Source: Pseudomonadota bacterium (lineage in GTDB: Bacteria; Pseudomonadota; Gammaproteobacteria; JAKAQQ01). Taken from it: DNA of 16,007 nucleotides. This document shows positions 1,193 to 16,007 of this stretch, piece after piece. The stretch lies in assembly GCA_027320085.1 (NCBI GenBank), contig DAHVLZ010000016.1, forward strand, positions 1 through 16,007, in the 5' to 3' direction. The stretch's first letter is position 1, and every line of letters begins with the position of its first letter. The notes beneath the pieces were generated by a model. The model had not been told where the DNA came from. It searched no databases and saw only the letters and a program-made list of their open reading frames with translations. The translations under genes and the position numbers were made by a program.

Positions 1193-2142
1193 GTCTCGAT
1201 CCGGCTCCCGGTGATGGTGAGGTAGGCTTCCTCGAGCGAAGGCCGGCGGATCCGGGCTTCTTCGAGGCCGACCCCGCGCGGGGTGAGATCCAAAACCAGA
1301 TCGACGAGCAGGCGTTCCCCCTGTTCGCCGTGGAACCGGTAATCGGGCCCGTCCGTATCCGGAACCGGCTCGAACTGGAAGCGTCCCTTGAGACCGGTTT
1401 CCTCCTCGGGGGTGAGCCTCCGGTTGAAGCGGACCTCGAGATTCTGTCCGTCGGTGAAGCGTTCGACCAATGCCCGGGGCGTGTCCACGGCACGGATCCG
1501 GCCACGGAACAGGATGGCCACGCGGTTGCAGAGTTTCTCGGCCTCCTCGATATAGTGCGTGGTCAAAAGCAGGGTCTTGCCCATCCGGCTCAGTTCCAGG
1601 ATGATGTCGTGGAGTTCGCGCCGGATCTTGGCATCGAGCCCGGTCGTGGGCTCGTCGAGGACGACGAGGTCGGTATCCCCGACGAGTGCCAGGGCGAGGG
1701 CGAGCCGCTGCTTCTGCCCACCAGACAGCCGTTCATAGAACTCCCGGCGCTTTTCGTCCAGGCCGACCAGGGCGAGCAGTTCGGCGACAGGCCGCGGATG
1801 GGGATAGAGGCCGGCAAAGAGGTGGAGCAACTCATCCACCCGGATCTTGTCGGGGAAAGGCGAAATCTGGAGCTGGCCACAGATGAGTTCGCGGATCTGG
1901 CGGGGAGCCGTCTCCGGATCGACCCCGAGTATGCGCACCTGGCCCCGGTCCCGGTGCTTGATGCCGAGCAGGATCTCGACGAGCGTGGTCTTGCCGGCGC
2001 CGTTCGGACCCAGAAGGCCGAAAATCTCCCCCGGGCGGATTTCGAAGGAGGCGTCCGCGAGGGCCGGGTTCCGGCCGTAGGACTTGCTCACGTCGATCAC
2101 TTCGACGGCCCACTCAGTGCTCGTTTGGGCGGGGTCCGGCAT
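1189..2142 (-). CDS. ABC transporter ATP-binding protein (DrrA/NodI-like exporter family)
   Basis: Walker A GPNGAGKT, signature LSGGQKQR, Walker B VVLDEPTTGLD, H-loop TTHYIEEAE and C-terminal PSLEEAYL. The start is placed at ATG 2142; 2169 is also possible. Confidence 0.93.
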   Translation of the reverse strand: MPDPAQTSTEWAVEVIDVSKSYGRNPALADASFEIRPGEIFGLLGPNGAGKTTLVEILLGIKHRDRGQVRILGVDPETAPRQIRELICGQLQISPFPDKIRVDELLHLFAGLYPHPRPVAELLALVGLDEKRREFYERLSGGQKQRLALALALVGDTDLVVLDEPTTGLDAKIRRELHDIILELSRMGKTLLLTTHYIEEAEKLCNRVAILFRGRIRAVDTPRALVERFTDGQNLEVRFNRRLTPEEETGLKGRFQFEPVPDTDGPDYRFHGEQGERLLVDLVLDLTPRGVGLEEARIRRPSLEEAYLTITGSRIET

Positions 2143-2222
2143 GGCTCGAGGCTTGGGGATGAGGTGCATTATGATAGGTGAAAATCCAGGTCCGAGCCGG
2201 CGCACCCCGCAAGGAGCCCCCG

Positions 2223-3503
2223 ATGAACGATGCCGATCTCATGGAACGGGCCCGCCGCGTTCTCGTGGGGGGCGTGAACTCCCCGGTTCGTGCCTACCAG
2301 GCGGTCGGCGGGGTTCCGGTGTTCGTCGCCCGCGGGAAGGGCGCCGAGATCTGGGGTGCCGATGGAACCTGCTACCTCGACTGCGTCGGTTCCTGGGGGA
2401 CGGCGCTTTTGGGCCATGCGGATCCCGATGTCGTGGCTGCGGTCTGCCGGGCGGCCCGGGATGGCCTGAGCTTCGGGGCCCCGACCCCGGGTGAAACCGA
2501 GCTGGCCCGAAGACTCGTCGAACGCGTGCCGGGCATCGAACGGGTCCGCCTCGTGAGCTCGGGCACCGAGGCCACCCTGAGTGCCATCCGGCTGGCACGG
2601 GCCGTGACGGGACGGGAGGGACTGATCAAGTTCGCGGGGGGCTACCACGGGCACGGAGACAGCCTGCTCGTGGAGGCCGGCTCGGGTGCGCTCACGGGCG
2701 GCCATCCGAGTTCGCCGGGCGTGCCGGCCGAGCTCGCCCGGCTGACCCGGGTCCTGCCCTACAACGATGCTGCCGCACTGCGGGAGACCCTGGCCCGCGA
2801 AGGTGACCGGATGGCGGCCGTGATCGTGGAAATCGTGGCCGGCAACATGGGCTGTGTGCCCCCCAGGCCCGACTTCCTCGCGGCACTCACGGAATCCACC
2901 CGCGCCCGGGGCGTGCGTCTCATCGCGGATGAGGTGATGACGGGCTTCCGCGTGGGACCCCGGGGCGCCCTCGGACGCTACGGCCTGACCGCCGACCTCG
3001 TCACCCTGGGCAAGGTCATCGGCGGCGGACTGCCCATGGGGGCCCTGGCGGGCGGGGCACGCGACCTCGACGCGCTCGCCCCGGAAGGGCCGGTCTACCA
3101 GGCCGGCACCCTGTCCGGCAATCCGCTTTCCGTGGCCAGCGGAATCGCCACCCTCGACAAGCTCGCCGATCCCGGGATCTACCACACCCTCGAGAAACGG
3201 ACCGGACGGCTGGCGGCCGGTCTCGAGGAACTCATCCGCGAGACCGGCACCCCTGCCACCGTGAACCACGTCCCCGGCATGTGGAGCCTGTTCTTCTCCC
3301 CCCCCCCGGTCCAGAACCTCACCGATGTCCGGCGCGGCCGGGTGGATCATTTCCGGCACTTCTTCCACCATCTCAAGCACCAGGGCATCCTGCTCCCGCC
3401 CTCTCCTTACGAATCCGCCTTCCTGTCTTTGGCCCACGAAGACCCGCACATCGACCGGATCCTCGAGGCGGCCCGCCAGGCACTGCGGACCCTTCCGGCC
3501 TGA
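2223..3503 (+). CDS. hemL: Glutamate-1-semialdehyde 2,1-aminomutase
   Basis: Motifs GGVNSPVRA, SGTEAT, KFAGGYHGH, DEVMTGFR, PLP-lysine LGKVIGGGLP and YQAGTLSGNP. RBS AAGGAG at 2211-2216 precedes ATG 2223. Confidence 0.97.
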   Translation: MNDADLMERARRVLVGGVNSPVRAYQAVGGVPVFVARGKGAEIWGADGTCYLDCVGSWGTALLGHADPDVVAAVCRAARDGLSFGAPTPGETELARRLVERVPGIERVRLVSSGTEATLSAIRLARAVTGREGLIKFAGGYHGHGDSLLVEAGSGALTGGHPSSPGVPAELARLTRVLPYNDAAALRETLAREGDRMAAVIVEIVAGNMGCVPPRPDFLAALTESTRARGVRLIADEVMTGFRVGPRGALGRYGLTADLVTLGKVIGGGLPMGALAGGARDLDALAPEGPVYQAGTLSGNPLSVASGIATLDKLADPGIYHTLEKRTGRLAAGLEELIRETGTPATVNHVPGMWSLFFSPPPVQNLTDVRRGRVDHFRHFFHHLKHQGILLPPSPYESAFLSLAHEDPHIDRILEAARQALRTLPA

Positions 3504-5483
3504 ATGCTGTTCCACCGTCTCATTCCACTCGTGATCCATTGGGTGAGCGGACATCCGCTCTGGGGCGTGGTTGCGGCCTTCGCCATCGCCTTCTGTGAAA
3601 CCCTGGCCTTCATCGGTTACACCGTCCCGGCCCTGTTCCTGCTCTTCGGCCTGGGGACGCTGGTCGGAAGCGGACTCCTGCCGTTCTGGCCGGTCTGCGC
3701 CGCACTCGCGGGAGGTGCCTTTCTCGGGGACACCCTGAGCTATCTTCTGGGCCGCTTTTTCCGTGGCCGGAGCTCGGGCTGGATCGGACATCGGGGAATC
3801 CGCCGCAACCTGGAACGGGGACAGCGCTTCTTCCAGAACCATGGCGGAAAGAGCATCCTCATGGGCCGCATGATCGGCGCCCTGCGGCCGATCGTCCCCG
3901 TCGTGAGCGGGATCGCCGATTTTCCGCTGTTGCGTTTTGTCTGGATCGACAGCCTGGCCGCGCTCCTCTGGGCTCCGGTCTATCTCCTGCCCGGGATGGT
4001 CTTCGGCGCGTCCGTCGGGCTTGCGGCGACCGTGAGCCTGAGGCTCGCCTTGATCCTGACCCTGGCCATCACCCTTCTCTGGCTCGGCCACTTCCTTCTG
4101 CGCTGGGGTTTCGGGCGTCTGGCCCCTTTCGAACAGCGCCTGCGCCATCTCTGGTTCCGTCTCTGGGAAGCGAGCGAGCGCTGGCCGGCCCTGGACCGGC
4201 TCACGGGATCCATCGACGAGACAGGGGGGGTCCCGCTCCTCGTCCTCACCGGATTGCTGCTCGTGGGCACACTCTGGTTGTTCAACCATCTCGTCCTCGG
4301 TTTTGTCGGTGACCGCTGGCCCGGATTCATCGATGCCATGGCGCTTGCGGCCGTGGAGCGGATCCCCCAAAACCCGTGGCGGGATGTCGCCGGCAATCTC
4401 ATGCTGTGGGTGGCTCCCGTCGGATGGCTGCTCTACGGCATCCTTGCGCTTCTCGTTCTCGGTTTCCGCCGCTCGCCCCAGCCGCTCCGCTATCTCGGCG
4501 CGGCCATCCTCTATGGCCTCGTGTGTGACTTTCTCGTCCGCGCCGCCTTCTTCCACTGGAACGGCAGTCTCGCAGTACCGGACAGCATCGCCGGTGCACT
4601 CTCCGTCTACGGGGTGGGAGCCGGCATCATCGCCACCGACTGGCCGCGGGCCAAAAGGCTTGCCCTCTACACGCTCTTCGCACTCCCCCTGGCCTTCGCG
4701 ATCGCCGGATCGCTCATGGTGGGCGCCCTCTGGCTGGGCAACGCGATCGGGTCGGGTCTCCTCGGGCTGATCTGGGCCGCACTGCTCGTCCTGGCCTATC
4801 GCCACCATCCGCACAGTCCGCCGCCACGTCTCCCGCTCACCCTCCTGTTCGCAGGCAGCCTGGCCGCCATGACGGCCGGGGCGGTGCTTGCGGGCTGGAG
4901 GCCGCCCGAGACCCCTCCGCTCGGGCTGCCGCGGCGGGCCTGGCTGGCCGGACACTGGCCGGGGTTCGGGAACCGCCGATCCCTGGCCCGGCGCTGGCCC
5001 ATGGATTTCAACGTCGAGTACGGCGGAGCACTCAAACCCCTCCGTCTCGCCCTCGGGAGCGCCGGCTGGACGGCCCCTCCCCGCCTGACCCCGCAAAATG
5101 CCCTGTCCTGGCTCATGACCCGTCCTCCCGTGAACCGGCTTCCGCTTTTCCCCACCCTCCATCATGGACGTTTCCCGGCCCTGGCCCTGCTCCGGACCGT
5201 GGATCACGACCCCTCCCGCCGGTCGGAATGGGTCCTGAGACTGTGGCGGAGTTCCTACATCCTGGAACCGGGAGGACAGACGCTCTGGCTGGGACAGATG
5301 AGTCCGTTCAAGACGCGGGAACATCTGGCCCTGATCACCTTGCCCCGCAACCAGGGCAGCCGGCGGGGGGGACTCATCCGCCTCGCCCGGTCCCTCGAAG
5401 GGCAAACCGGCTTCCGGCTCTGGTCACGCCGGATCGGCCACCACCCGATCCTCCTCATCGAATCGCGCCACCCGAAGCGCTGA
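3504..5483 (+). CDS. DedA(VTT)/PAP2-like/LssY C-terminal domain membrane protein
   Basis: N-terminal DedA motifs (AFCETLAFIGYTVP, GAFLGDTLSY.LGR, GRMIGALRPIVPVVSG), a central PAP2-like TM region, and a soluble LssY-like C-terminus (LPLFPTLHHGR, VLRLW, LWLG). It directly abuts hemL (TGAATG). Confidence 0.8.
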   Translation: MLFHRLIPLVIHWVSGHPLWGVVAAFAIAFCETLAFIGYTVPALFLLFGLGTLVGSGLLPFWPVCAALAGGAFLGDTLSYLLGRFFRGRSSGWIGHRGIRRNLERGQRFFQNHGGKSILMGRMIGALRPIVPVVSGIADFPLLRFVWIDSLAALLWAPVYLLPGMVFGASVGLAATVSLRLALILTLAITLLWLGHFLLRWGFGRLAPFEQRLRHLWFRLWEASERWPALDRLTGSIDETGGVPLLVLTGLLLVGTLWLFNHLVLGFVGDRWPGFIDAMALAAVERIPQNPWRDVAGNLMLWVAPVGWLLYGILALLVLGFRRSPQPLRYLGAAILYGLVCDFLVRAAFFHWNGSLAVPDSIAGALSVYGVGAGIIATDWPRAKRLALYTLFALPLAFAIAGSLMVGALWLGNAIGSGLLGLIWAALLVLAYRHHPHSPPPRLPLTLLFAGSLAAMTAGAVLAGWRPPETPPLGLPRRAWLAGHWPGFGNRRSLARRWPMDFNVEYGGALKPLRLALGSAGWTAPPRLTPQNALSWLMTRPPVNRLPLFPTLHHGRFPALALLRTVDHDPSRRSEWVLRLWRSSYILEPGGQTLWLGQMSPFKTREHLALITLPRNQGSRRGGLIRLARSLEGQTGFRLWSRRIGHHPILLIESRHPKR

Positions 5484-5511
5484 TGGGGGGCGAGTCCTCC
5501 TGCTGATGCCA

Positions 5512-5542
5512 CCCGGGGGGCGGGACCGCCCGCCTTCCTGGG
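5512..5542 (+). terminator. GC-rich hairpin downstream of the hemL-dedA operon
   Basis: GGCGGG-ACCG-CCCGCC core (5519-5534), extendable with G-U pairs. No U-tract. Confidence 0.3.
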
Positions 5543-5575
5543 GCTCCCGTCGCACCCGCAGGACGCGCCTGTCCT

Positions 5576-5610
5576 ATGCGACACAGCTTGTCGCAAACGA
5601 ATTCCATACT
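5576..5610 (+). promoter_or_regulatory. Palindromic operator, copy 1 (probable WYL-regulator site), with a -10-like hexamer
   Basis: TGCGACA-CAGCT-TGTCGCA (5577-5595), with CATACT at 5605-5610, 10 nt after TGTCGC. It is 20/21 identical to the copy at 8505-8525. Confidence 0.8.
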
Positions 5611-5620
5611 GGGGTTCTGA

Positions 5621-5720
5621 GCCCGGAGTCTCCCCCTGGGGAGGATTCCCGGCGTGGCCTGCGGCCCGGGTGACGGGAGGCCGGATCCCTCGGGTTCCCG
5701 TCATCCGCGCAGGCGATCAC
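5621..5720 (+). other. Highly structured 5' leader (two stem-loops)
   Basis: Stem 1 spans 5621-5653. Stem 2 has GCCTGCG (5657-5663)/CGCAGGC (5708-5714) enclosing CGGGTGACGGGA (5667-5678)/TCCCGTCATCCG (5696-5707). Confidence 0.5.
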
Positions 5721-5746
5721 CCATGCCAAAGAACGGAGGAACGCAG

Positions 5747-6952
5747 ATGACCTGTGACGTCGCAGTCTTGAACCGGTCGGGAGTCGCCCTGGCAACCGAC
5801 AGTGCCGTGAGCAGCTACCGGCACGACGGATCCGGAGAAACCCTCACCCGGGTGTTCCGGGGTTCCCGGAAACTTTTCGGGCTCCGTCCCGACCTGCCGG
5901 TCGGCATCCTGCTCCACGGTCGCACCAATCTCATGAACCGGCCGTGGGAGAGCCTGATCGGGACGTTCCGGCCGACCCTGCCGGCCCGGGGTTTCCCCAC
6001 GCTCGCCGACTATGCCCATGCCTTTTTCCGCCATGTGGAATCCCATACCGGGCTTTTCCCCTCCGCCCTCCAGCGCCAGGACTTTCTCCTGACCTGCGAG
6101 GCCTATGTGAAACAGGGGCTTCTCAGTCGCCTTCAGGAAGAGCGGGGCGAGGCCGGGGCGGATGACCCCGAGGCCGCGTGCCAGGCATTCGGTCCGATTC
6201 TGGGCAAGGACCTCGAGGAATGGCAGGGCGTGCCCGAACTCGAGGATTTCGGGGAACCCTATGGTGAGGAGGTTTGGCGGCGCTACGGGCGCGAGGTCCA
6301 GAAATCGTGGCCCGGGATCCTGGGATTCCGGCCCAGCCGGACCCTCGCGACCGGCCTGGCCCGGTTGGCCCGTCATCTCTACTCGAGGCAGTGGATCCAT
6401 CCCGCGGACATTTCCGGGATCGTCTTTGCCGGATTCGGGGAAAAGGACTTTTTCCCGTCAATTATCGACTACGAGGCAGGCACCCTGGCCGCGGACCGGC
6501 TCAGGGTCATCGCGGGGACGCGGAAGGCCATCGACGACACGGAGGATGCCCTGATCTGCCCGTTCGGCCAGGTCGAAGCAATCCATGCCTTCTGCAGCGG
6601 GATCACGCCGGAGCTCCTGGAAAACATCAAGCAGGCGATCCATCACGCGTGGCCCGGCGTGGAGGGCCAAAACCTGCTCGCCACCTTCCATGAAACGATC
6701 GGGCAGACCCAGATTGCGCCCCTCCTCCGGATGGTCGCCGCCATGCCCCGCCCCGAACTGGCCCGGCTGGCCGGAACGCTCGTGCACCTGACCGCCTTCC
6801 GCGCCCATCTCTCGTCCACCGAGGAAACCGTGTGCGGACCGGTGGACGTGGCCCTCCTCGGCCGGGAGAGCGCATTCACCTGGGTCCGGCGAAGCCCGCC
6901 GGACGACGCCTGCCCTGATTTTCATCCAACCACTGACCGGAGGCTCTCATGA
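5747..6952 (+). CDS. Proteasome beta-subunit/HslV-like Ntn-hydrolase (predicted Thr protease) with a large insertion, 401 aa
   Basis: RBS GGAGGA at 5735-5740 precedes ATG 5747. The mature N-terminus TCDVAVLNRSGVALATDSAVS gives Thr1 and Asp17. RKLFGL resembles the Lys33 strand, followed by VGILLHG. The C-terminal ETVCGPVDVALL resembles proteasome SGG.IDVAVI. The CDS call is firm; the function is inferred. Confidence 0.7.
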   Translation: MTCDVAVLNRSGVALATDSAVSSYRHDGSGETLTRVFRGSRKLFGLRPDLPVGILLHGRTNLMNRPWESLIGTFRPTLPARGFPTLADYAHAFFRHVESHTGLFPSALQRQDFLLTCEAYVKQGLLSRLQEERGEAGADDPEAACQAFGPILGKDLEEWQGVPELEDFGEPYGEEVWRRYGREVQKSWPGILGFRPSRTLATGLARLARHLYSRQWIHPADISGIVFAGFGEKDFFPSIIDYEAGTLAADRLRVIAGTRKAIDDTEDALICPFGQVEAIHAFCSGITPELLENIKQAIHHAWPGVEGQNLLATFHETIGQTQIAPLLRMVAAMPRPELARLAGTLVHLTAFRAHLSSTEETVCGPVDVALLGRESAFTWVRRSPPDDACPDFHPTTDRRLS

Positions 6953-7284
6953 GCGGACCAAACTCAATCCATGGGTCGATCGACTTCCTCGATTACGAGT
7001 TTCAAGCCGAGTGCAACGTGCCCTGCCGGATCCGCTTCGCGAACGGCCAGATCCAGGTCACCTGGGAGCAGGACGGACGCGGCACCAGACGGGAAACCGT
7101 CGAATACATCGGGACTGTCACAAACTCCGAACACTACGAACTCGAGTGTCCGGGCCATCGGGGCAAAGCCACCCTGCATCGCTTCCCGGGGGCACAAGTG
7201 CTCGTGGGCGACCTGTTCCACGAGGGCCAGCGCGGGATGTGGCGCATCTGCCTGTTTCCCGCCCAAGTCGGGGGTGATGAATGA
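6949..7284 (+). CDS. Hypothetical small beta-rich protein, 111 aa
   Basis: ATGA overlap with the upstream gene and GGAGG RBS at 6939-6943. Composition is globular, unlike the Pro/Arg-rich shadow ORFs. Confidence 0.75.
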   Translation: MSGPNSIHGSIDFLDYEFQAECNVPCRIRFANGQIQVTWEQDGRGTRRETVEYIGTVTNSEHYELECPGHRGKATLHRFPGAQVLVGDLFHEGQRGMWRICLFPAQVGGDE

Positions 7285-7306
7285 CCGGGCCCTGGGCCGG
7301 GAGGCA

Positions 7307-8485
7307 TCAAGGGCCCCGTCGATTCCCCGGGATCCGTCCGCCAGCCCGTAACCGGACGCGGACGGGGGGTGCCCGGTGAGCGGGCTTCCGTCCGGCTTCG
7401 GGCTTCCCCGGGGCTGCCGGAATGCCCGGTCTCCGGCTTGGGCGGATCGCCTTCCGAGGCGGGAGTCTGACTGGGGTGTAGCCGGCCTGCGCCTTCGCCA
7501 GGATCCGGGACAGCTCCCGGCGCAGCGGAGCGGGCCCGAGTACCGTGACCCACTCGCATTGGCCCAGGAGCCAGCGGCGCAACGCGCGCGTGTCGCGCAC
7601 CGTGGCCGTGACCACCGAAGCACTCCGCCCGGCCGGCTCGATTTTCTGGTCCTCCGAGAGGGGCTGCTCGCGCAGGTAGAAGGCAGCCTCCCGACTGACC
7701 GAGAGCCTGAGTTGCAGGGGATCCGGGCCGAGCGTCACCTCGACCTCGCCCCGTTCGATGTAATCGTCCAGCCGGAAGTTCTTTTGATTGGCCGAGGCCA
7801 TGAGCTTTCTGGCCGTGCGGATGCGCGGGAGGGCATAGAGCCGCGGCTCCTTGTAATTCCAGGCCCTGGCCACGAGGTAGATGATCTTTCTGCACGGTAT
7901 GAGGGCCAGCGGATGGAGGATGTAGGGCTTGCCCTGCGGCCGATCCTCACCGGGCTTCTGATAGGTGATCTCGAGCTGGCGGCCCTCGAAGAGCGCCTCG
8001 TAGACCGGGCCGGATACCGTTGCCGGGATGTCCGGGGCCTTGCGGGGCAGATCGCCCGTGACGTCGCAAACCCGCTCCTGCCAGCGCGCGACATCGCCTT
8101 CTCCATGCTCGACCAGGAGAGAGCGCGATTGGGAGAAGTAGGGTTTGAAATGCTTGAGGACCGTGGGCGGGAGGAGTTCGTACAGGCGATCCTCCATGAA
8201 CCGGAAGCCCAAGGCCGTGTAGACATCCATGGCCGGGAAACCCCTCTGCGGCGCATCCTTCGACCAGAACCAGTAGTACGTCCGGTCCTCCCTTTTGTAT
8301 TCGAGATGGGGAAAAGCATCCTGGAGTTTCATGAGGTCCCGCTGGATGCTCCGCACACTGATCTCCTTGCGGGTCGTGTGCTCGATCTGCTGCTGGAGAT
8401 CCAGTGTCTTGACACACCCGGGCGCCCTCGGGACGTGCTCCAGCATGGCGAAATGGCGCTTGATGACCTGGCTCGTCGCGGGCAT
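7307..8485 (-). CDS. WYL-domain transcriptional regulator (wHTH-WYL-WCX)
   Basis: wHTH SVRSIQRDLMKL, WYL domain (ALFEGRQLEITY...LHPLAL...IYLVA...RLYALPRI) and WCX (LRRWLLG...VTVLGPAPLR). GGAGG RBS precedes ATG 8485. Confidence 0.92.
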   Translation of the reverse strand: MPATSQVIKRHFAMLEHVPRAPGCVKTLDLQQQIEHTTRKEISVRSIQRDLMKLQDAFPHLEYKREDRTYYWFWSKDAPQRGFPAMDVYTALGFRFMEDRLYELLPPTVLKHFKPYFSQSRSLLVEHGEGDVARWQERVCDVTGDLPRKAPDIPATVSGPVYEALFEGRQLEITYQKPGEDRPQGKPYILHPLALIPCRKIIYLVARAWNYKEPRLYALPRIRTARKLMASANQKNFRLDDYIERGEVEVTLGPDPLQLRLSVSREAAFYLREQPLSEDQKIEPAGRSASVVTATVRDTRALRRWLLGQCEWVTVLGPAPLRRELSRILAKAQAGYTPVRLPPRKAIRPSRRPGIPAAPGKPEAGRKPAHRAPPVRVRLRAGGRIPGNRRGP

Positions 8486-8504
8486 GGCCCCTCCGGGTTT
8501 TCGG

Positions 8505-8539
8505 ATGCGACACATCTTGTCGCAAGTGGAGACCAGACT
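8505..8539 (+). promoter_or_regulatory. Palindromic operator, copy 2, in the WYL/AAA divergent intergenic region, with a -10-like hexamer
   Basis: TGCGACA-CATCT-TGTCGCA (8506-8524), with CAGACT at 8534-8539, 10 nt after TGTCGC. It lies 20 nt upstream of the WYL start codon. Confidence 0.82.
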
Positions 8540-8571
8540 ATCACAGAATCCACCCGTTCCGAGGAGCCACC

Positions 8572-10707
8572 ATGAATCCCGCACGCCCCCCCGTCCGCAA
8601 TTTGAAAACCCGGTGCCCGGGACGCGCGCCGGACGGCCCCCAAGCCCTGTGTCGGCTCTGGGGTCTCCGCATGCTGCTCCTGCCCGAGGCCCGGAAGGAC
8701 CTGGCCCCGCTGCTCCTCAATGCCGGGATCCTGCGGCAGCTGGGGCTCAAATCCTTGCGCACAAGGTCCCTCCTCCCCGAGGAGGAGGATCAAGATCTGG
8801 AACTGTCGCATTTCCGTCTCGGCGAGGTGAGGCGGGCCCTGTCCCGGATCCGGCGCCTGGAACCGGGATTTCCGGAGCCCCTGGCGGGCAACCTGAAGAA
8901 TTTCCAGTCGGTCTTCGGGCTCACCCCGCTCGAACAGAACCTGATCGGCTTCTTCGTGATCCTGAACCGGGTCGAGTGGTTCAGCGAGTGTTCCCATTGC
9001 CTGGGGCTTGAACTCGGCAACCTCCGGATCTGCCAGATCCTGGGCCATCTGCTCAAGGCACCGGTCGACGAGGTCAAAAAGGCACTCGGTTCCGGCGGAA
9101 CGCTCGCCCGGGTGGGCCTCCTCCGCTTCGATTCCCGGGAGGGGGGGACGCTCCAGAGCCGGGTCGATCTCATGGACGGGCTTGCCGAACTCCTGTCAGG
9201 GGGCGAAACCACGGTGGAGGAGCTCTTCGGCCGTTTCTTCCGTGAGGCCCCGGCATGCCGGCTCGCGCGCGCGGATTACCCTCATGTGGCCACAGACCTC
9301 GATCTCCTGGTTGACCTCTTCCGCAATGCCCGCTCCCAACGGACATCCGGGGTCAACGTGCTCCTCTACGGCCCACCGGGTTCCGGCAAGACGGAACTCG
9401 CGAGACTCATCGGCCGGGAGGCCGGACTTTCCCTCTTCGAGGTGAGCGAGACCGATGCCGACGGCGACCCCTATCCCGGCAAAAAGCGCCTCCTCCTCTT
9501 CAGGCTCTGCCAGCAGACGCTCGAGCAGCACGAGCACTCGGCCATTCTCCTGGACGAGATGGAAGACGCCTTTCCCGCCGGCCCGGACGGGGAATTTATC
9601 CCTGACCCGAACGCAACCCACAAGGCGTGGACCCACCACCTCCTCGAGACCAACCCCATCCCGGCCCTCTGGATCAGCAACGTCGTGGACCAGATCGATC
9701 CCGCTCTCCTCAGGCGCTTCAGTTACATCCTCAGGCTGGATGCCCCGCCCGCGCGGGTGCGCGAGCGCATCCTGGCCGAGCGGGTCGAGGGACTCGGCGT
9801 GACCGAGAGCTGGATCCGCCGCGTGGCCCGGGGATCCGCCTGCATGCCGGCCCATCTGGACACCGCGGCGCGCACGGCCCGCCTGGCCTCGCGCACGGGA
9901 CCCTCGGCCGAGACCGTGATGGAACGGGTGCTCCAAGGTCTCTTCGTGGCCTCCGGGGAGAAACCCATCCCCCGGGGAGAGCGCGCCTCCCCGCTCCCGT
10001 ACCGGCCCGACTGGATCAATCCCGACATCGACCTCAAGGGCATCCGGACCGCCTTCGGGCAGCACCCCGAACTCCGGATCTGCCTCTACGGACCTCCGGG
10101 TACCGGCAAGACCGCCTTCGGGAAACACCTGGCCGAGAGCCTGGATCTCCCCCACTGCCTCTACCGCGCCTCGGATCTGCTCGGGTGCTACGTCGGGGAG
10201 TCGGAGCAGAAGATCGCCGACATGTTCCGGCAGGCCGAGGAGGAAGGTGCCCTCCTCCAGGTGGACGAGGTGGACAGCTTCCTCGGGAAACGCGGGAGGA
10301 CCCAGCAGAACTGGGAGGCCACCCTGGTCAACGAGTTTCTGGTCGGTCTCGAGAACTTCCGGGGACTCTTCCTGGCCTCCACGAACCGCGTCACGGATCT
10401 CGACGAGGCGGCCTTCCGGCGCTTCGATCTCAAGGTCCGGCTGGATCCCCTGACACGGAGCCAGGCGCTCGAGATGGCCAATGCCGTGCTCGACGCCTGG
10501 CAGTGTCCGCGGGTTTCGGGTGACGGGGAGTCGCGCCTCGCCGCACTGACCGGCCTCACACCCGGCGATTTCCGGGCGGCACTCCGCAGACTCCTCCTCG
10601 TGGAAGAGCGAAACGCGGACACGCTCGTGGACGCGCTCGCCTCCGAACTGACCCACAAACCCGGAAACCATCGCGGTATCGGCTTCCTCGCGGAGTGGCG
10701 GCCATGA
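8572..10707 (+). CDS. Double-domain classical AAA+ ATPase, 711 aa
   Basis: D1: GPPGSGKT, ILLDEME, DPALLRRF. D2: GPPGTGKT, pore loop LLGCYVGESE, LLQVDEVD, STN, DEAAFRRFD. C-terminus GIGF. RBS GAGGAG at 8561-8566. Confidence 0.92.
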   Translation: MNPARPPVRNLKTRCPGRAPDGPQALCRLWGLRMLLLPEARKDLAPLLLNAGILRQLGLKSLRTRSLLPEEEDQDLELSHFRLGEVRRALSRIRRLEPGFPEPLAGNLKNFQSVFGLTPLEQNLIGFFVILNRVEWFSECSHCLGLELGNLRICQILGHLLKAPVDEVKKALGSGGTLARVGLLRFDSREGGTLQSRVDLMDGLAELLSGGETTVEELFGRFFREAPACRLARADYPHVATDLDLLVDLFRNARSQRTSGVNVLLYGPPGSGKTELARLIGREAGLSLFEVSETDADGDPYPGKKRLLLFRLCQQTLEQHEHSAILLDEMEDAFPAGPDGEFIPDPNATHKAWTHHLLETNPIPALWISNVVDQIDPALLRRFSYILRLDAPPARVRERILAERVEGLGVTESWIRRVARGSACMPAHLDTAARTARLASRTGPSAETVMERVLQGLFVASGEKPIPRGERASPLPYRPDWINPDIDLKGIRTAFGQHPELRICLYGPPGTGKTAFGKHLAESLDLPHCLYRASDLLGCYVGESEQKIADMFRQAEEEGALLQVDEVDSFLGKRGRTQQNWEATLVNEFLVGLENFRGLFLASTNRVTDLDEAAFRRFDLKVRLDPLTRSQALEMANAVLDAWQCPRVSGDGESRLAALTGLTPGDFRAALRRLLLVEERNADTLVDALASELTHKPGNHRGIGFLAEWRP

Positions 10708-10745: not shown

Positions 10746-10754
10746 TGTTATCAT
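10746..10754 (+). promoter_or_regulatory. Possible extended -10 promoter for the wecA-like gene
   Basis: TGtTATCAT in the intergenic region about 90 nt upstream of ATG 10843. Confidence 0.3.
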
Positions 10755-10842
10755 GACGCTGCGAGAGCGAGGCTCGAGCGCCACCCGGCTTGCGGAACGG
10801 ACTGCTCGGGAATCACGCAGCAAGAACAAGGGAGACCGGAAC

Positions 10843-11919
10843 ATGATTGAGTTCCTGGCCGGAAGCAGTGGATTTGTGCTCACGGCGATCACGATCGGAC
10901 TCCTCAACCCCTATGCCCGGCTGCTCGGTCTCCTCGATGCGCCCGGGTTCCTCAAGCATCACACCGCCCCGGTCCCGCTCACGGGCGGTATCGCGATTCT
11001 CGCGGGCTTCCTCACCACCTCGGCACTGCTCTATCTCGTCCACCCCCTCCACTTCCCCGAATGGCCACCCTACCTCCTCTGCGTGACCCTGCTCGCCACG
11101 GTGGGCATCGCGGACGATGCCACCGCCCGGGTCGGCCCGGGCGTCCGGGCCTTCCTGGAGGTGGCGATCGCCAGTATCGCCGCGCTCACGGCCCATGTGA
11201 TCCTCATCCGGCTCGGCAACCTCTGGGGGGGCGGGCGGGTCAGAACCGGGCTCCTCGCGGTTCCCTTCACGGTGCTCTGCATCCTGGGCGTCACGAACTC
11301 GATGAACCTGATCGACGGCTCGGACGGGCTCGCGGGACTCGTGAGCCTCGCCTCCCTGTTCTGGATCGGGCTTTTCGCCCAGGCAACCGGACGAGCGGAT
11401 ATCCAGACCGCCGTCCTGATCCTGGGAGGCGGGCTCGCCGCATTCCTGGCCTGCAATCTGCAATATTCGCGGCGGCGGATCCGGGTCTTTCTCGGGAGCA
11501 CGGGGAGCACCTTCCTCGGATTCACGCTGGCGTGGATGCTGATCCACCTGAGCCAGTCGCCAGGGGCGGGCCTCCCCCCGATCGTGGCCGTCTGGATCAT
11601 GGGACTGCCGATCCTGGACACGATCAGTGTCATGCTGCGAAGGATCCTCCGGGGCCGCAACCCGCTTCATGGCGGTCGCGACCATCTCCACCACTTTCTC
11701 GCCCTGCTGGGTTTTTCGAGCCGGCGCATCGCCTTCTTCGAGGCCACTCTCGCACTCGGGTTCGGCGGCATCGGTTATCTGGGATGGGTGCTCCACGGTC
11801 CCACCCCGCTCCTCACCTGGGGATTCATCGTCGTGGCCGTGTTTTACTTCACGGGATTTGTGATGCTGGACCGCAAGCTCAAGTGGGCGGAGTGGCCGTT
11901 TCTCGAAGAGCCGGACTGA
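10843..11919 (+). CDS. wecA: Undecaprenyl-phosphate N-acetylhexosamine-1-phosphate transferase (WecA/MraY PNPT family)
   Basis: Motifs KHH..PVPLTGG, GIADD, NSMNLIDGSDGLAG, VFLGSTGS and RDHLHHFL in a multi-TM protein. The start is placed at ATG 10843 after GGGAG. Confidence 0.85.
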   Translation: MIEFLAGSSGFVLTAITIGLLNPYARLLGLLDAPGFLKHHTAPVPLTGGIAILAGFLTTSALLYLVHPLHFPEWPPYLLCVTLLATVGIADDATARVGPGVRAFLEVAIASIAALTAHVILIRLGNLWGGGRVRTGLLAVPFTVLCILGVTNSMNLIDGSDGLAGLVSLASLFWIGLFAQATGRADIQTAVLILGGGLAAFLACNLQYSRRRIRVFLGSTGSTFLGFTLAWMLIHLSQSPGAGLPPIVAVWIMGLPILDTISVMLRRILRGRNPLHGGRDHLHHFLALLGFSSRRIAFFEATLALGFGGIGYLGWVLHGPTPLLTWGFIVVAVFYFTGFVMLDRKLKWAEWPFLEEPD

Positions 11920-12086
11920 AGGACGAGGCCGGATGAATCCATGTGGCACCCTGAGAGGGAGATCCCGTGGGGGAACGAAGGGCCGCAGTTTAACAGGCCT
12001 TCCGGCCCGGGAACGGGCAGACGGATCCACTTTGGATCCGGCGGATTGCCGGTTCAATTCAAGACTGCTGACAGGAGGTATGCGCG

Positions 12087-13082
12087 ATGACGGTTAAACG
12101 AAATGTTCTGGTCTGTGGAGCGGGTGGATTCATCGGAAGCCACCTGGTCCGGCACCTCAAGGCCGATGGGGGCTGCTGGGTACGCGGTGTGGATCTCAAG
12201 TACCCGGAATTTTCTCCCACGGCAGCCGACGATTTCCTGATCGGGGATCTCCGCGATCCTGTGATTTGCCGGGAAGCCCTCGATCGGGGCTTCGACGAGG
12301 TCTACCAGCTGGCCGCCGACATGGGCGGTGCCGGATTCGTGTTCACGGGTGAGAACGATGCCGACATCATGCACAACTCGGCCTTGATCAACCTGAACGT
12401 CCTCGAAGCCTGCCACCGGCGCAACACGAAGCGGATCTTCTATTCCTCATCGGCCTGCATGTACCCGGCCTACAACCAGGAAGATCCGGACAACCCCTGC
12501 TGTTCCGAGGATTCGGCCTATCCGGCGGCCCCGGACAGCGAATACGGCTGGGAGAAGCTGTTCAGCGAACGGCTCTACCTGGCCTTCGCCCGCAACCACG
12601 GACTCGAGGTGCGGATCGCCCGCTACCACAACATCTTCGGACCCGAGGGTACCTGGGACGGGGGACGCGAGAAGGCCCCTGCGGCCCTGTCACGCAAGAT
12701 CGCCCTCGCCCGCGATGGGGACGAAATCGAGATCTGGGGGGATGGGCAGCAGACCCGGTCGTTCCTCTACGTGGACGAGTGCCTCGAGGGCACGATCCGT
12801 CTCACCCGGTCGGAGTGGACGGGCCCCGTGAACATCGGCTCGGCCGAGCAGGTCACGATCGACGGGCTGGCGCAACAGATCGCGAAGATCGCGGGCAAGC
12901 GGATCCGGCTCCGGCATGTGCCCGGACCCCTGGGGGTGCGCGGGCGCAACTCCGACAACCGGCTGATCCAAGAACGGCTGGGTTGGGCCCCCACCGAGTC
13001 CCTCGAAGCCGGGCTGCGCCGAACCTACCCGTGGATTGCCGGGCAGATCCAGAACCGTGGGAAAAAGACAGCCGGCGCCTGA
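12087..13082 (+). CDS. NAD-dependent epimerase, GDP-mannose 3,5-epimerase-like
   Basis: Motifs GAGGFIGSH, LAADMGGAGF, YSSSACMYP, YGWEK and GTWDGGREKAPAA. AGGAGG RBS. Confidence 0.9.
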   Translation: MTVKRNVLVCGAGGFIGSHLVRHLKADGGCWVRGVDLKYPEFSPTAADDFLIGDLRDPVICREALDRGFDEVYQLAADMGGAGFVFTGENDADIMHNSALINLNVLEACHRRNTKRIFYSSSACMYPAYNQEDPDNPCCSEDSAYPAAPDSEYGWEKLFSERLYLAFARNHGLEVRIARYHNIFGPEGTWDGGREKAPAALSRKIALARDGDEIEIWGDGQQTRSFLYVDECLEGTIRLTRSEWTGPVNIGSAEQVTIDGLAQQIAKIAGKRIRLRHVPGPLGVRGRNSDNRLIQERLGWAPTESLEAGLRRTYPWIAGQIQNRGKKTAGA

Positions 13083-13095
13083 TCCGGTCTGCCAA

Positions 13096-13929
13096 TCAGG
13101 GTGAGGATACCGATCCGGCCCCGTCCAGGAAGGAGGCCAGCGTCCTTTTGAGCACCGGAGACGGGGGCGTCCAGAACTGGGGGAGCTTGCGCAGGGGTTT
13201 GAGCACCCGGAACCCGGGGAACGGGGAGATGCCATTGACCCTCCAGGCCTGCCGGTCGAAACGGTTCGCCCGTATCCGGTTCCGGACCGTTGCATTGCTG
13301 GCCCCGCCCAATCGCATGGCAACCCAGAAATCCGGGATGCAGATGGAAGAAAGGCCATGGAGAAAGAGAAAGCGCAGCATGAGTTCGTAGTCGGCCGCGC
13401 TCCCGAGGTCGAGCCGCATTGCTCCGAATTGCCGGTAGAGACCAAGCCGGGCATAGAAGGTGGGATGGGGCGGCATCCATCCATATCGGAAACGGAGACG
13501 CCGATAGGAAGTTCCCGGCCAGACCCGGAGGATCCGCGTCGGTTCCGCCGGATCCACATAGGCGACCTGACCGTAACAGCTGTCCACACCATCCGAGAAG
13601 GCATCCACCACCCGTCCCAGGGTGTCCGGGCAAAAAAAGAAGTCGTCGGCATTCAAAAACCCGGCAATCTCGCCCGTTGCCAGTGCAAGGCCCTTGTTCA
13701 TTCCGTCGTAAATCCCGCGATCCCGTTCCGAGATCATCTGACGGACCGTCTCGGGGTACTCGCGGACCAAATCCAGACTCCCGTCGGTCGAGAGCCCGTC
13801 CACCACGACCTGCTCGATCTCGAACTCCCGTCCACGGGGTGAGCGGCGATGCTGCAGGGCGACGCTCCGGAGGCAGGTGCGAAGGGTGGCAACGCCATTC
13901 CTGACGGTGGTGATCACCGAGACTTTCAT
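13096..13929 (-). CDS. Family 2 glycosyltransferase (WcaE/WfgS-like)
   Basis: Motifs MKVSVIT, VVDGLSTDGS, SERDRGIYDGMNKG, FLNADD, PPHPTFY, AADYELMLRF and MRLGGASN. Confidence 0.92.
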   Translation of the reverse strand: MKVSVITTVRNGVATLRTCLRSVALQHRRSPRGREFEIEQVVVDGLSTDGSLDLVREYPETVRQMISERDRGIYDGMNKGLALATGEIAGFLNADDFFFCPDTLGRVVDAFSDGVDSCYGQVAYVDPAEPTRILRVWPGTSYRRLRFRYGWMPPHPTFYARLGLYRQFGAMRLDLGSAADYELMLRFLFLHGLSSICIPDFWVAMRLGGASNATVRNRIRANRFDRQAWRVNGISPFPGFRVLKPLRKLPQFWTPPSPVLKRTLASFLDGAGSVSSP

Positions 13930-14042
13930 GTCATTCCCGCTCCCGAGGCATCGAAGGGCCCGGGGTTCCGCCGGATCTGCCAGTTGCCCAGAACCAGGAG
14001 ATCCATGTGGGTCCTGAGGAAACAGTCAAGGGTTTCTTCAGC
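13926..14042 (-). pseudogene. C-terminal remnant of a NodU/CmcH-family carbamoyltransferase
   Basis: The minus strand reads AEETLDCFLRTHMDLLVLGNWQIRRNPGPFDASGAGMT*, resembling the family's terminal TPEEALDCFLRT.MD.LVLG motif. Its stop overlaps the GT2 ATG (ATGA). Only about 40 nt separate it from the upstream gene, so the rest of the gene is missing. Confidence 0.7.
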
Positions 14043-14084
14043 CAGAGGTGTGGTCCTGCGTCCTTGCGAGGCCTGGGCGGGTTC

Positions 14085-14933
14085 TCAGGAATCACTCTGC
14101 TTTTCTCTCAATCTACGTTCGTAGAGTTTCGCATCAACCAGAAACCGGTACCAGAAAGCCTGCAAACAGCAAAAGACCAGCCCCGGGAGACCGTCCAGGA
14201 AACCCACCCGGATCCAGTAGCGATAAACCCAGTAAAGCCATGCCCTAAAAAAAATGGGGGCTCTCATATAGATCGACAGCTTGAGTCTTCGCCTCAGTCC
14301 GGCCTGTCCTTCAGGAACACCTCCTTGCGGAGGATGGAGGAGATCCAGCACCTCGCGATCCGAGTAGCCATTGTGCTTGTCAACCCAAAATCCCAGTCCC
14401 TTGAGATTCTCGTCGACGAGATCATGCTTCATGTGAAGAATAGGTCCCCCTCCCTCCAGAACCACATGCTCATCCATCGCCCGATCCTCGAGGCGTCCTC
14501 TCCCCGTGCGCCAGATTCTAAGCAACCAGGTCGGATAATAGCCTCCATGCCGGATCCAGTGCCCCCAGAAATAGACCCGTCGGCGAATGAGCCACCCGTC
14601 GACCTTATGGTCTGTGGCGGGCAATACACGAGCCATCTCGGCGGCGAGCTCGGGCAGGAGATACTCGTCCCCGTCCATCCGCATGGTCCACGGCGTGTCT
14701 ACCGGTACCGTCTCAAGTGCCCAGTTGAACTGCCGGGAATGGTTCTCGAACGGATGCGAGTAGACCTCGGCACCGAGCTGGCGCGCCAGCTCCGCGGTGC
14801 CGTCCGTGCTTCCTGAGTCCACCATCACGAAACGGGCGGGAACCGCATCGAAACTGCGGATCAGCCGGGACAGGTGAAGAGACTCGTTCTTCACCAGAAC
14901 AATCACGGTCACGATCGGCTGATCGTTACTCAT
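14085..14933 (-). CDS. Family 2 glycosyltransferase (beta-1,4-glucosyltransferase/KdtX-like)
   Basis: Motifs IVLVKNES, VDSGSTDGT, QFNWAL, MDGDE, WIRHGGYYP, MDEH and KHNGYSDRE. The start at ATG 14933 overlaps the upstream stop. Confidence 0.9.
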   Translation of the reverse strand: MSNDQPIVTVIVLVKNESLHLSRLIRSFDAVPARFVMVDSGSTDGTAELARQLGAEVYSHPFENHSRQFNWALETVPVDTPWTMRMDGDEYLLPELAAEMARVLPATDHKVDGWLIRRRVYFWGHWIRHGGYYPTWLLRIWRTGRGRLEDRAMDEHVVLEGGGPILHMKHDLVDENLKGLGFWVDKHNGYSDREVLDLLHPPQGGVPEGQAGLRRRLKLSIYMRAPIFFRAWLYWVYRYWIRVGFLDGLPGLVFCCLQAFWYRFLVDAKLYERRLREKQSDS

Positions 14934-16007
14934 CCATCCCCCGGTTCTTTGAACTCGCAATGGCCGAAGAGAAAAGTCGAGCATACGCCTCCTCTAAATC
15001 CTCTTCCTGAAGACGCCGCAAACGATCAAGCGATCCGCTCCGCCATTCGGCATGCTCGGTTTCGGTCATCTCCGCGAGTTGGTCGATCCGCCGGGCAAAC
15101 AGCAGGGGATTCTCCAGTGGGATGGACCATCCCGCCCGCACCACCTCAAGGTCGGTCCATGGTGTCCGATCACTCACCAGAACCGGAGTCGCAGAAGCCC
15201 AGCTTTCGACGATGACGTAGCCGTAGTTTTCACCGAGCGTCGGAAGCAGCAAGGCATCGTACTGGCTCATGATCCCACTCACCGCATCCGGATCAACGGA
15301 TCCCCTATAGAAGGTTGTAACGTGCTTGGGCAGTTCCCGGAGGCTCCGCTGGCAGAGAGCCCAGTAAGCTGGATCCTCGATCGGACCGTAAATATCGAGA
15401 CAAACCGGCGCTTGAACCCGGGACAGGATTTCAAGAGCGCCAAGCAGGTTTTTCTTTGGCGAAATCCTCGAGAGGAAGATCAGGCGTGCACGACCCTCTT
15501 GCTTGGGCGCATGGCACTTCACCACCTCCGCGCTGGGTGTGGGAGGAAAGTTGGGTGCAAGAATCACCTCACTCTTCGCACCCACAACGCGCCTGATGGA
15601 TTCCACTTCTTCGGGGCTGGCGGCATGCCAGCTCAGCCCTCGGCCAAGGTCCAGGAGTTTGGCGAAACCCAGATAGATCCGCTTGCGTTTCGGCTTGAGC
15701 GAGAGCGCCCCGGCCGAAAATTCGCCACGCGGAGCAATGATTAAGGGAATCCGCTGTACGAGTCCCATCCGGCGAAGGCACAACAGTTGGATGGTGGGCT
15801 CCCGTGCAAAAAAACTGCAGATATAAATCGCGTCGGGGCGCATGTTCTCAACTAGCTGCAGGATTGCAGGGGCCGTACGTCTCAAAAATGACGCATAAAA
15901 AACCCAGGCTTGGCCTTTTTTTTGCCATTGATTGCTGGTGATCCCTGGCAGTTTCTCCCTTGTTCCGAACTCGCGATCCCGGCAGTACACATAGAAGGCA
16001 TACGGCG
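14926..16007 (-). CDS. Family 4 (GT-B) glycosyltransferase, 5'-truncated by the window edge
   Basis: Motifs IIAPRGEFS, FLSRISPKKNL and LLLPTLGENYGYVIVES (EX7E). The frame stays open to the window end (...PYAFYVYCRDRE). Confidence 0.9.
   Translation of the reverse strand, partial: PYAFYVYCRDREFGTREKLPGITSNQWQKKGQAWVFYASFLRRTAPAILQLVENMRPDAIYICSFFAREPTIQLLCLRRMGLVQRIPLIIAPRGEFSAGALSLKPKRKRIYLGFAKLLDLGRGLSWHAASPEEVESIRRVVGAKSEVILAPNFPPTPSAEVVKCHAPKQEGRARLIFLSRISPKKNLLGALEILSRVQAPVCLDIYGPIEDPAYWALCQRSLRELPKHVTTFYRGSVDPDAVSGIMSQYDALLLPTLGENYGYVIVESWASATPVLVSDRTPWTDLEVVRAGWSIPLENPLLFARRIDQLAEMTETEHAEWRSGSLDRLRRLQEEDLEEAYARLFSSAIASSKNRGMDE

Follow-up and report, generated by a model that had tools for sequence, protein, structure and literature searches.

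A putative threonine hydrolase of predicted proteasome-beta fold belongs to a widespread, mobile family that is often accompanied by a small downstream gene

The window analysed here is one whole contig of 16,007 bases from a 2.14-Mb genome of 47 contigs. On its plus strand, positions 5747–6952 (stop codon 6950–6952 included) encode a protein of 401 amino acids, termed P0001, which we describe as a putative threonine hydrolase of the N-terminal nucleophile (Ntn) type with a predicted proteasome-beta fold. The translation begins M-T-C-D-V-A-V-L-N-R-S-G-V-A-L-A-T-D-S, and a Shine-Dalgarno-like GGAGG can be read from the sequence at 5735–5739 (plus strand), leaving a 7-nt spacer before the ATG at 5747–5749. 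The original prediction, made from the DNA letters, had preferred this ribosome-binding-site-supported M-T start over the longer frame of 432 amino acids that an open reading frame (ORF) list draws from a GTG at 5654. The GGAGG bears this choice out, as do independent gene calls in the protein database, which use the same 401-residue form (P0003), and a genome of the same genus, in which the M-T codon is the earliest start of the hydrolase ORF (983–2191). If Thr is counted as residue 1, Asp is residue 17 of the translation and Lys, within R-K-L-F, residue 41, exactly as had been claimed. On the plus strand, Thr2 is encoded at 5750–5752 and would be the N-terminal nucleophile, Thr1, once Met is removed; the codons of Asp18, the Asp17 equivalent, and of Lys42, the Lys33 equivalent, are found at 5798–5800 and 5870–5872, respectively. 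Gly58 (5918–5920, plus strand) is a candidate oxyanion-hole glycine, its equivalence to Gly47 being suggested by its position after the Lys strand. A loop insertion of eight residues before the lysine had also been described; its length stood, but it is composite, with about three residues found family-wide and five specific to the lineage of the window. Consensus scans of 5300–8800 returned neither promoter-like nor terminator-like sites, and a look-up of the stretch gave no RNA holder.

The AlphaFold2 model of P0001, built from 15 homologues, reached a mean predicted local distance difference test (pLDDT) score of 82.7 and a predicted template modelling score of 0.81, with low confidence in residues 21–40 (pLDDT about 50 before the lysine) and in the tail 384–401. 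The modelled chain runs through strands (residues 4–62), helices (67–213), strands (223–273), helices (276–353) and a last set of strands (359–382). Helical block 1 (5945–6385, plus strand) consists of six helices and would comprise the equivalents of H1 and H2 plus roughly 100 extra residues, the edges of the insert being approximate, and helical block 2 (6572–6805, plus strand) would comprise the equivalents of H3 and H4 plus an insert of roughly 45 residues. The C-terminal strands (6821–6892, plus strand) carry the motif E-T-V-x-G-P-(V/I)-D-V-A. The model thereby accounts for the doubled size of the protein in the way first proposed, by helical sequence placed between the strands of the core.

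Foldseek comparison of this model with the PDB gave 14 matches at E≤0.001, every one of which is a 20S proteasome subunit. Alignment to yeast beta5 with VIA-align yielded a Z score of 14.5 at a root-mean-square deviation of 3.9 Å over 190–192 aligned residues, with model residues 2–391 laid over beta5 chain residues 1–200 and Thr2 on the catalytic Thr1. In a Foldseek-independent structure search of 48,161 PDB representatives, for which 50 rows were listed, the Z scores were 13.8 for 20S beta, 12.3 for an Anbu design, 10.0 for BPH, 9.7 for HslV, 9.2 for NAAA and 9.0 for Connectase. The top 19 rows hold 20S proteasome subunits, the Anbu design, BPH or HslV exclusively, and among the matches listed nearly all are Ntn-type hydrolases, including penicillin, bile-salt and cephalosporin acylases. 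Residue 2 of the model falls on the nucleophile in most rows of this search and is aligned to residue 1 of mature beta5, HslV, BPH and Connectase. The predicted fold of P0001 is hence the Ntn alpha-beta-beta-alpha sandwich with 20S beta as its closest relative, the outcome that had been anticipated for a check by AlphaFold and Foldseek. A search of BFVD returned nothing at E≤0.001.

A HMMER scan of 1.84 billion representative sequences showed that P0001 belongs to a large family of 3974 members at E≤0.001, a number that falls to 2794 at E≤1e-10 and to 667 at E≤1e-30. The majority have a length of 390–450 amino acids and align from residue 1. An (M/V/L)-T start is present in 138 of the 149 best family representatives, and eight of the remaining 11 begin seven residues further on, at the internal Met of an I-M-N-K motif, which we read as miscalled starts. 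In an alignment of 107 sequences the columns T2, A16, D18, K42, G229, G231 and W379 are invariant, and conservation reaches 90% or more at G58, Q275, E360, T361 and G364. All three residues of the proposed Thr1/Asp17/Lys41 pattern are accordingly kept without exception across these homologues and, as judged from the alignment, the pattern is not a product of chance. The hidden Markov model (HMM) of phrog_5990 (PHROGs v4) directly matches both P0001 (E 6.4e-55, in three stretches only, because P0001 is divergent) and three typical members, these over their full length (E 4.8e-125 to 3e-139). By this profile comparison the family equals phrog_5990, which carries no annotation. The ESM Atlas yielded clusters of 'hypothetical protein' only, besides one PF00227-bearing cluster at 0.90.

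Several results weigh against reading P0001 as a proteasome relative. Pfam (E≤0.01), NCBIfam and PADLOC returned no match to P0001, and phmmer against the PDB chains found nothing; in particular, the PF00227 Proteasome model does not match P0001, the same model finding the HslV of this very genome at 9.7e-27. The family profile peaks against the PDB at E 0.18, over 18 residues of the Gly-rich C-terminal strand of an archaeal beta subunit, and the C-terminal strands of P0001 are the sole stretch to touch that archaeal 20S beta profile. With hhalign the probability was 2.9% against the genome's own HslV and 0.9% against 28 HslV sequences of the phylum; both runs placed T2, D18 and K42 on Thr1, Asp17 and Lys33, at scores that are not significant. 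Since the sequence and profile tests miss or are weak, the case for homology rests on the predicted structure and on residue conservation. In addition, the equivalents of Ser129 and Ser169, as mapped by motif order, are not kept (A/G-Q and G, respectively) and Asp166 corresponds to Glu, so that catalysis in this family may differ from that of the proteasome.

Proteins of this general architecture have been described computationally. In Bioinformatics 2021, Fuchs, Alva and Lupas retrieved 22 new proteasome-like families by iterative searches, all of them without propeptides and some with helical or multiple insertions, named PHI and PMI-1 to PMI-6 (PMC8665760). According to these authors, PMI-2 to PMI-6 have insertions between H3 and H4, inserts of this kind may be incompatible with rings, and PMI-4 is the largest new family, with 501 sequences at 90% identity and an occurrence in every major bacterial phylum, in Euryarchaeota and in phages; they state that they found neither genomic context or co-occurrence hinting at function nor an AAA+ partner (PMC8665760). 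P0001 likewise combines a predicted proteasome-like fold, the Thr1/Asp17/Lys33 pattern and the lack of a propeptide, as described there for PMI-4 (or PMI-3). Also as in the published outline of PMI-3 and PMI-4, it is extended by a long insertion at H1/H2 and a further insertion between H3 and H4, with no large helical insert between S3 and S4; ahead of the Lys strand the model has no more than a short hairpin of low confidence. The family described here further shares with PMI-4 the spread over most bacterial phyla, Euryarchaeota and phages and the lack of a function or AAA+ partner on record. In contrast to that study, which reports no informative genomic context, we find a conserved downstream gene of about 58 amino acids; P0001 itself sits in a divergent clade, with 28–36% identity to the rest of the family, that lacks this gene. 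We would with good likelihood assign the family to PMI-4, less likely PMI-3, on the basis of the described features and not via the reference sequences HDY66466.1 and OGZ26396.1; a cluster look-up of 10 family proteins returned 'hypothetical protein' names only and no PMI reference accession. The architecture of P0001 was thus already catalogued in silico in 2021, and P0001 is a divergent member of an experimentally untouched kind, no functional study of the family having been found in our literature searches. For the partner gene, its predicted docking site and the carriage by phages, satellites and plasmids we found no earlier description, and these features may be new.

Taking structure prediction and conservation together, we consider it likely that P0001 is a genuine, probably active Ntn threonine hydrolase with a proteasome-beta fold that belongs to the PMI group, which is the best explanation overall. 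With the catalytic 20S beta subunits of the beta5 type, its best structural match, it would have in common the N-terminal Thr, Asp17, Lys33 and the Gly after strand S5. Unlike them, it has no PF00227 match, no propeptide, no Ser129 or Ser169 and about 200 extra helical residues, and there is no alpha-subunit gene for it; its assembly into a ring is doubtful. HslV is bacterial as well, has its Thr1 exposed by simple N-terminal processing and is the protein on whose T1/D17/K33 the residues T2/D18/K42 came to lie in hhalign. HslV is, however, a protein of about 175 amino acids with an adjacent HslU, whereas P0001 has 401 amino acids and no HslU-type partner, and the sequence similarity between the two is not significant. 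The genome possesses an HslVU operon of its own on another contig, and together with the lack of a PF00227 or NCBIfam match this upholds the earlier view that P0001 is not a canonical HslV, Anbu or BPH. The ORF of that separate HslV (contig C1, L081 1471–2034, with HslU at 2070–3422) begins 12 residues before T-T-I, which may reflect either a short propeptide or a start that was miscalled.

A scan of a genome collection located at least 448 family loci, of which 80 were kept for locus analyses; a metagenome scan with P0001 added three distant loci only. At many loci a short ORF starts within a few bases of the hydrolase stop codon. An HMM built from 40 of these small downstream ORFs found matches in 47 of the 80 genome loci, the 40 training ORFs being included among these, and in two of the three metagenome loci. 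All 49 matches lie directly downstream of the hydrolase on the same strand, and none was obtained elsewhere in the six-frame set at E≤1; several of the 33 unmatched loci end at the hydrolase gene and hence cannot be judged. The small partner is lysine-rich, with a basic N-terminus and an amphipathic C-terminal helix, and it carries the motif aromatic-x-S-x-x-E-aromatic-x-x-x-aromatic-aromatic-P, in which the Pro is nearly invariant. An alignment-based database search retrieved 80 partner proteins, mostly of exactly 58 amino acids, all devoid of Pfam domains and, where named, all 'hypothetical'; no Pfam family matched the partner at E≤1 besides chance rows. In the one phage record and the one satellite record examined, a divergent ORF of 58 amino acids lies 3 nt past the hydrolase stop. 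In a quick tree, archaeal hydrolases and partners (from Methanophagales, Methanosaeta and Methanomicrobiales) are interleaved with the bacterial ones (L009 and L036, also L018, L025 and L065), which points to transfer of a two-gene cassette between the domains.

To address the association of both proteins, the complex of the Dehalococcoidia pair L009 was predicted from an alignment for each chain, alongside three controls. The complex scored 0.63 compared to 0.38 for the best control; the mark applied to this score is reached by 116 of 157 solved complexes and by two of 215 mismatched pairs. Contacts agreed by at least 88% between runs and the pLDDT of the partner did not fall below 58. With confidence, partner residues 13–30, which contain the conserved motif, are placed in contact with hydrolase residues 124–142 and 191–194, in helical block 1 and away from the active site; the equivalent residues in the protein of the window are 126–144 and 193–195. 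The prediction supports binding of the small partner to helical block 1 in the canonical members of the family. Two points speak against extending it freely: the control that scored 0.38 is the one in which the hydrolase was replaced, a rather high value, and L009 is another member of the family than P0001. The inserts had earlier been suggested to act as a built-in gate or substrate sensor; what bears on this idea is the predicted docking on insert 1 in canonical members, whereas the clade of the window lacks the docked partner.

One alternative is modelled on Connectase, a monomeric proteasome homologue in which a helical insert caps the active site (PMC7980362, PMC8665760). Capped in this way, the Connectase monomer acts on a particular protein partner, and P0001 might similarly be a sequence-specific transpeptidase or ligase that uses the small downstream protein or a host protein as its substrate. 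In the structure search the model matched Connectase at Z 9.0, its residue 2 falling on residue 1 of that enzyme, and the nearly invariant Pro within the aromatic motif of the partner could serve as a recognition site. P0001 is, however, nearer to 20S beta (Z 13.8), Anbu, BPH and HslV than to Connectase, has no match to DUF2121 in Pfam, and differs in the positions of its inserts, since helices that are absent from Connectase (H1/H2) are present and the two-helix insert between S3 and S4 is missing. Moreover, the predicted partner contacts lie on the helical insert and not near Thr1, the clade of the window has no 58-residue partner at all, and the family is not restricted to methanogens. We therefore regard a Connectase-like ligase as improbable, if the best of the alternatives to a hydrolase acting on its own.

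The family loci are spread over Pseudomonadota, Chloroflexota, Acidobacteriota, Planctomycetota, Nitrospirota, Bacillota, Actinomycetota, Bacteroidota, candidate phyla and Methanobacteriota, in a patchy manner: two of 201 genomes of the window's class and two of 10 genomes of its order carry the gene. The quick tree, our phylogeny throughout, intermixes archaea and bacteria, e.g. by pairing a Methanophagales row with a Dehalococcoidia row. Searches by tblastn with a typical member retrieved 10 plasmid records and 13 phage records, nine of the latter from Streptococcus, of which seven are satellite phages. In the lambdoid Providencia phage PSTRCR_117lys the hydrolase gene lies between the antiterminator Q/Dam methylase genes and the holin gene, and in the streptococcal satellite Javan468 it lies at the element's end, as the last gene but one. 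Pfam scanning of the two larger neighbours on either side (72 loci, 253 proteins) revealed at least one neighbour of conflict or mobile type at 21 of the 72 loci, by our own classification and without a background control; the types comprise restriction-modification, GmrSD, PglZ, DUF3800, HepT, RES, SocA, Cap4-nuclease, transposase/integrase, relaxase and phage proteins. Blastp clustering of 875 neighbour ORFs gave no conserved large neighbour. We hold it about evenly balanced whether the hydrolase is an accessory, horizontally moving conflict module that serves defence or counter-defence. The case draws on carriage and on neighbourhoods assessed without a background control, and the remaining 51 loci have housekeeping or unknown neighbours, both of which count against this role.

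P0001 and its homologue from the same genus (about 65–66% identity) form a long branch in the quick tree, inside a clade of 11 rows that is well supported and in which the 58-residue partner is absent throughout. The clade has likewise not kept the conserved L-P motif of the predicted docking loop, which is consistent with the loss of the partner. In two loci of the clade an ADP-ribosylglycohydrolase gene adjoins the hydrolase (L013 9197–10762 and L034 6664–7641); in L013 the product is fused to a dual-specificity phosphatase domain and the gene has a 4-nt overlap with the hydrolase stop.

In the window, the place of the partner gene is taken by an orphan of 111 amino acids, p111 (P0167; 6949–7284, plus strand), whose start overlaps the hydrolase stop in an ATGA, and from this overlap both genes are predicted to be translationally coupled. 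In the genome of the same genus the order hydrolase, p111, WYL regulator (minus strand), AAA+ protein and GT4 glycosyltransferase is preserved, with identities of 50% for p111, 50% for the WYL protein and 73% for the AAA+ protein, and the ratio of non-synonymous to synonymous substitution rates is about 0.5 for both the hydrolase and p111. Counting against a wider relevance of p111, the homologue search returned its own near-identical cluster, so that it is known from this genus only, and tblastn found it in none of the 80 family loci. Pfam and NCBIfam gave nothing for P0167, and no family of PADLOC-DB v2 matched P0001 or P0167 at E≤0.1. The model of P0167, built from three sequences with a pLDDT of 80.8, is an eight-stranded up-and-down beta barrel. 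Foldseek returned nothing for this model at E≤0.001, and its structural rows are tied between the barrel of the Cap15 cyclic-dinucleotide receptor (Z 10.4), designed barrels, outer membrane protein barrels, avidins and Gid4. P0167 may accordingly be a small barrel of ligand- or peptide-binding type, from which we draw no specific function.

The gene that follows encodes a regulator with WYL and WCX domains (7307–8584, minus strand) and is transcribed towards the hydrolase operon and away from the AAA+ gene. In the window as in L120, L002, L017, L005 and L013, no more than 2.5 kb separate a WYL gene from the hydrolase. Among the 80 loci, tblastn matches for WYL were found in L002, L005, L013 and L034, all of the 11-row clade, with one match, in L034, lying 8 kb off, and in L017, a truncated locus outside the tree that shows 40% identity to P0001 and has a WYL gene of the L002 type. 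With the window's own WYL protein as the query, one of the 80 family loci was matched.

The protein of 711 amino acids encoded at 8572–10707 (plus strand) contains two AAA+ modules, the second of which is IetA/FtsH/CDC48-like. As listed, the WYL and AAA+ starts overlap by 13 nt, so that at least one of them has been called too early; the alignment with the same-genus protein begins at residue 38, and the true AAA+ start is probably about 37 codons later. The divergent WYL/AAA+ pair is found again in the same genus and, less tightly arranged, in a different genus belonging to the same family, and could form a regulated system of its own. An AAA+ protein of the classical clade 1.3 kb downstream raises the question whether P0001 could be the protease at the heart of a new ATP-dependent machine, comparable to HslV-HslU or 20S with PAN/Cdc48. 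Its best NCBIfam and PADLOC rows (IetA/IteA, FtsH, CDC48 and PAN, all far below the cut-offs) and the conserved order of hydrolase, p111, WYL and AAA+ genes would be in keeping with such a machine. However, tblastn of the AAA+ protein gave three weak partial matches in the 80 family loci, neighbour clustering revealed no conserved ATPase, and the other genus has AAA+ and WYL homologues together but no hydrolase. Within the window, too, it is the WYL gene and not the hydrolase operon with which the AAA+ gene forms a divergent pair, and the inserts of P0001 occupy places needed for ring contacts. Fuchs et al. likewise found no AAA+ partner co-occurring with any of their new homologues (PMC8665760). 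Because it is found without the hydrolase elsewhere and is not associated with the family, we treat the AAA+ gene as a separate neighbour, and a joint machine appears slightly less probable still than a Connectase-like ligase. Least probable by a distance is a catalytically dead scaffold in the manner of proteasome alpha or inactive beta subunits, which the missing Ser129 and Ser169 equivalents would suit, since the invariance of Thr2, Asp18 and Lys42 and the start codon directly before Thr in 138 of 149 representatives are hard to explain without a catalytic free N-terminus.

For an active threonine hydrolase, the following course of events can be proposed. Translation would start at 5747, and methionine aminopeptidase would remove the Met and expose Thr1. 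Removal of Met by this enzyme is permitted by a small second residue, and Thr is such a residue. It is the route by which forms of HslV without a propeptide mature, and with no propeptide and Thr1 exposed in this way, P0001 would need no autoprocessing. The O-gamma of Thr1 would then attack an amide bond, with Lys42/Asp18 and Gly58 acting as Lys33/Asp17 and Gly47. The helical blocks would occupy the positions of ring and pore contacts in beta subunits, barring a classical ring and restricting access. P0001 would most likely be a capped stand-alone unit, or form a new oligomer, of narrow specificity and not a seven-fold chamber. In most of the family, block 1 would dock the co-transcribed, lysine-rich protein of about 58 amino acids as a regulator, an adaptor or a substrate; in the window, whose clade has lost the partner and the L-P docking motif, p111 would regulate or direct the hydrolase instead. 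The fullest version of this proposal is a two-gene mobile conflict system for phage defence or counter-defence: a capped threonine protease whose helical insert holds a lysine-rich inhibitor, adaptor or pro-substrate of about 58 amino acids, carried as a moron of temperate phages or as satellite and plasmid cargo, with the window as a derived form in which a barrel of ligand-binding type has replaced the partner and WYL control has been added. We advance it tentatively, as a possibility that more probably fails than holds.

Outside the 20S proteasome, HslV, Anbu, BPH and Connectase, proteasome homologues are known in silico only. The present analysis adds testable handles in the form of a small partner gene, a predicted docking site on the insert and the carriage by phages, satellites and plasmids. 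Should a specific protease or ligase activity be demonstrated, the family could explain the repeated recruitment of proteasome-fold enzymes outside bulk degradation and might, as with Connectase, provide a tool; in annotation, thousands of 'hypothetical proteins' (phrog_5990) could receive a name.

Directly upstream of the hydrolase, positions 3504–5483 (plus strand) encode a protein of 659 amino acids with a VTT (DedA-type) membrane domain and a C-terminal LssY domain, and this gene is preceded by that of a class-III aminotransferase (2178–3503). The VTT, GT4 and aminotransferase proteins of the window each gave no tblastn match in the 80 family loci. On the minus strand, an open frame of 1078 amino acids (2169–5405) without a family match runs antisense to these two genes, both of which have good Pfam matches, and is most likely a shadow ORF of G+C-rich DNA. 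At the other end of the window, a cluster at 10753–15990 encodes GT4, an NAD-dependent epimerase, two GT2 and a GT1 protein, which probably function in the synthesis of a cell-envelope polysaccharide unrelated to the hydrolase.

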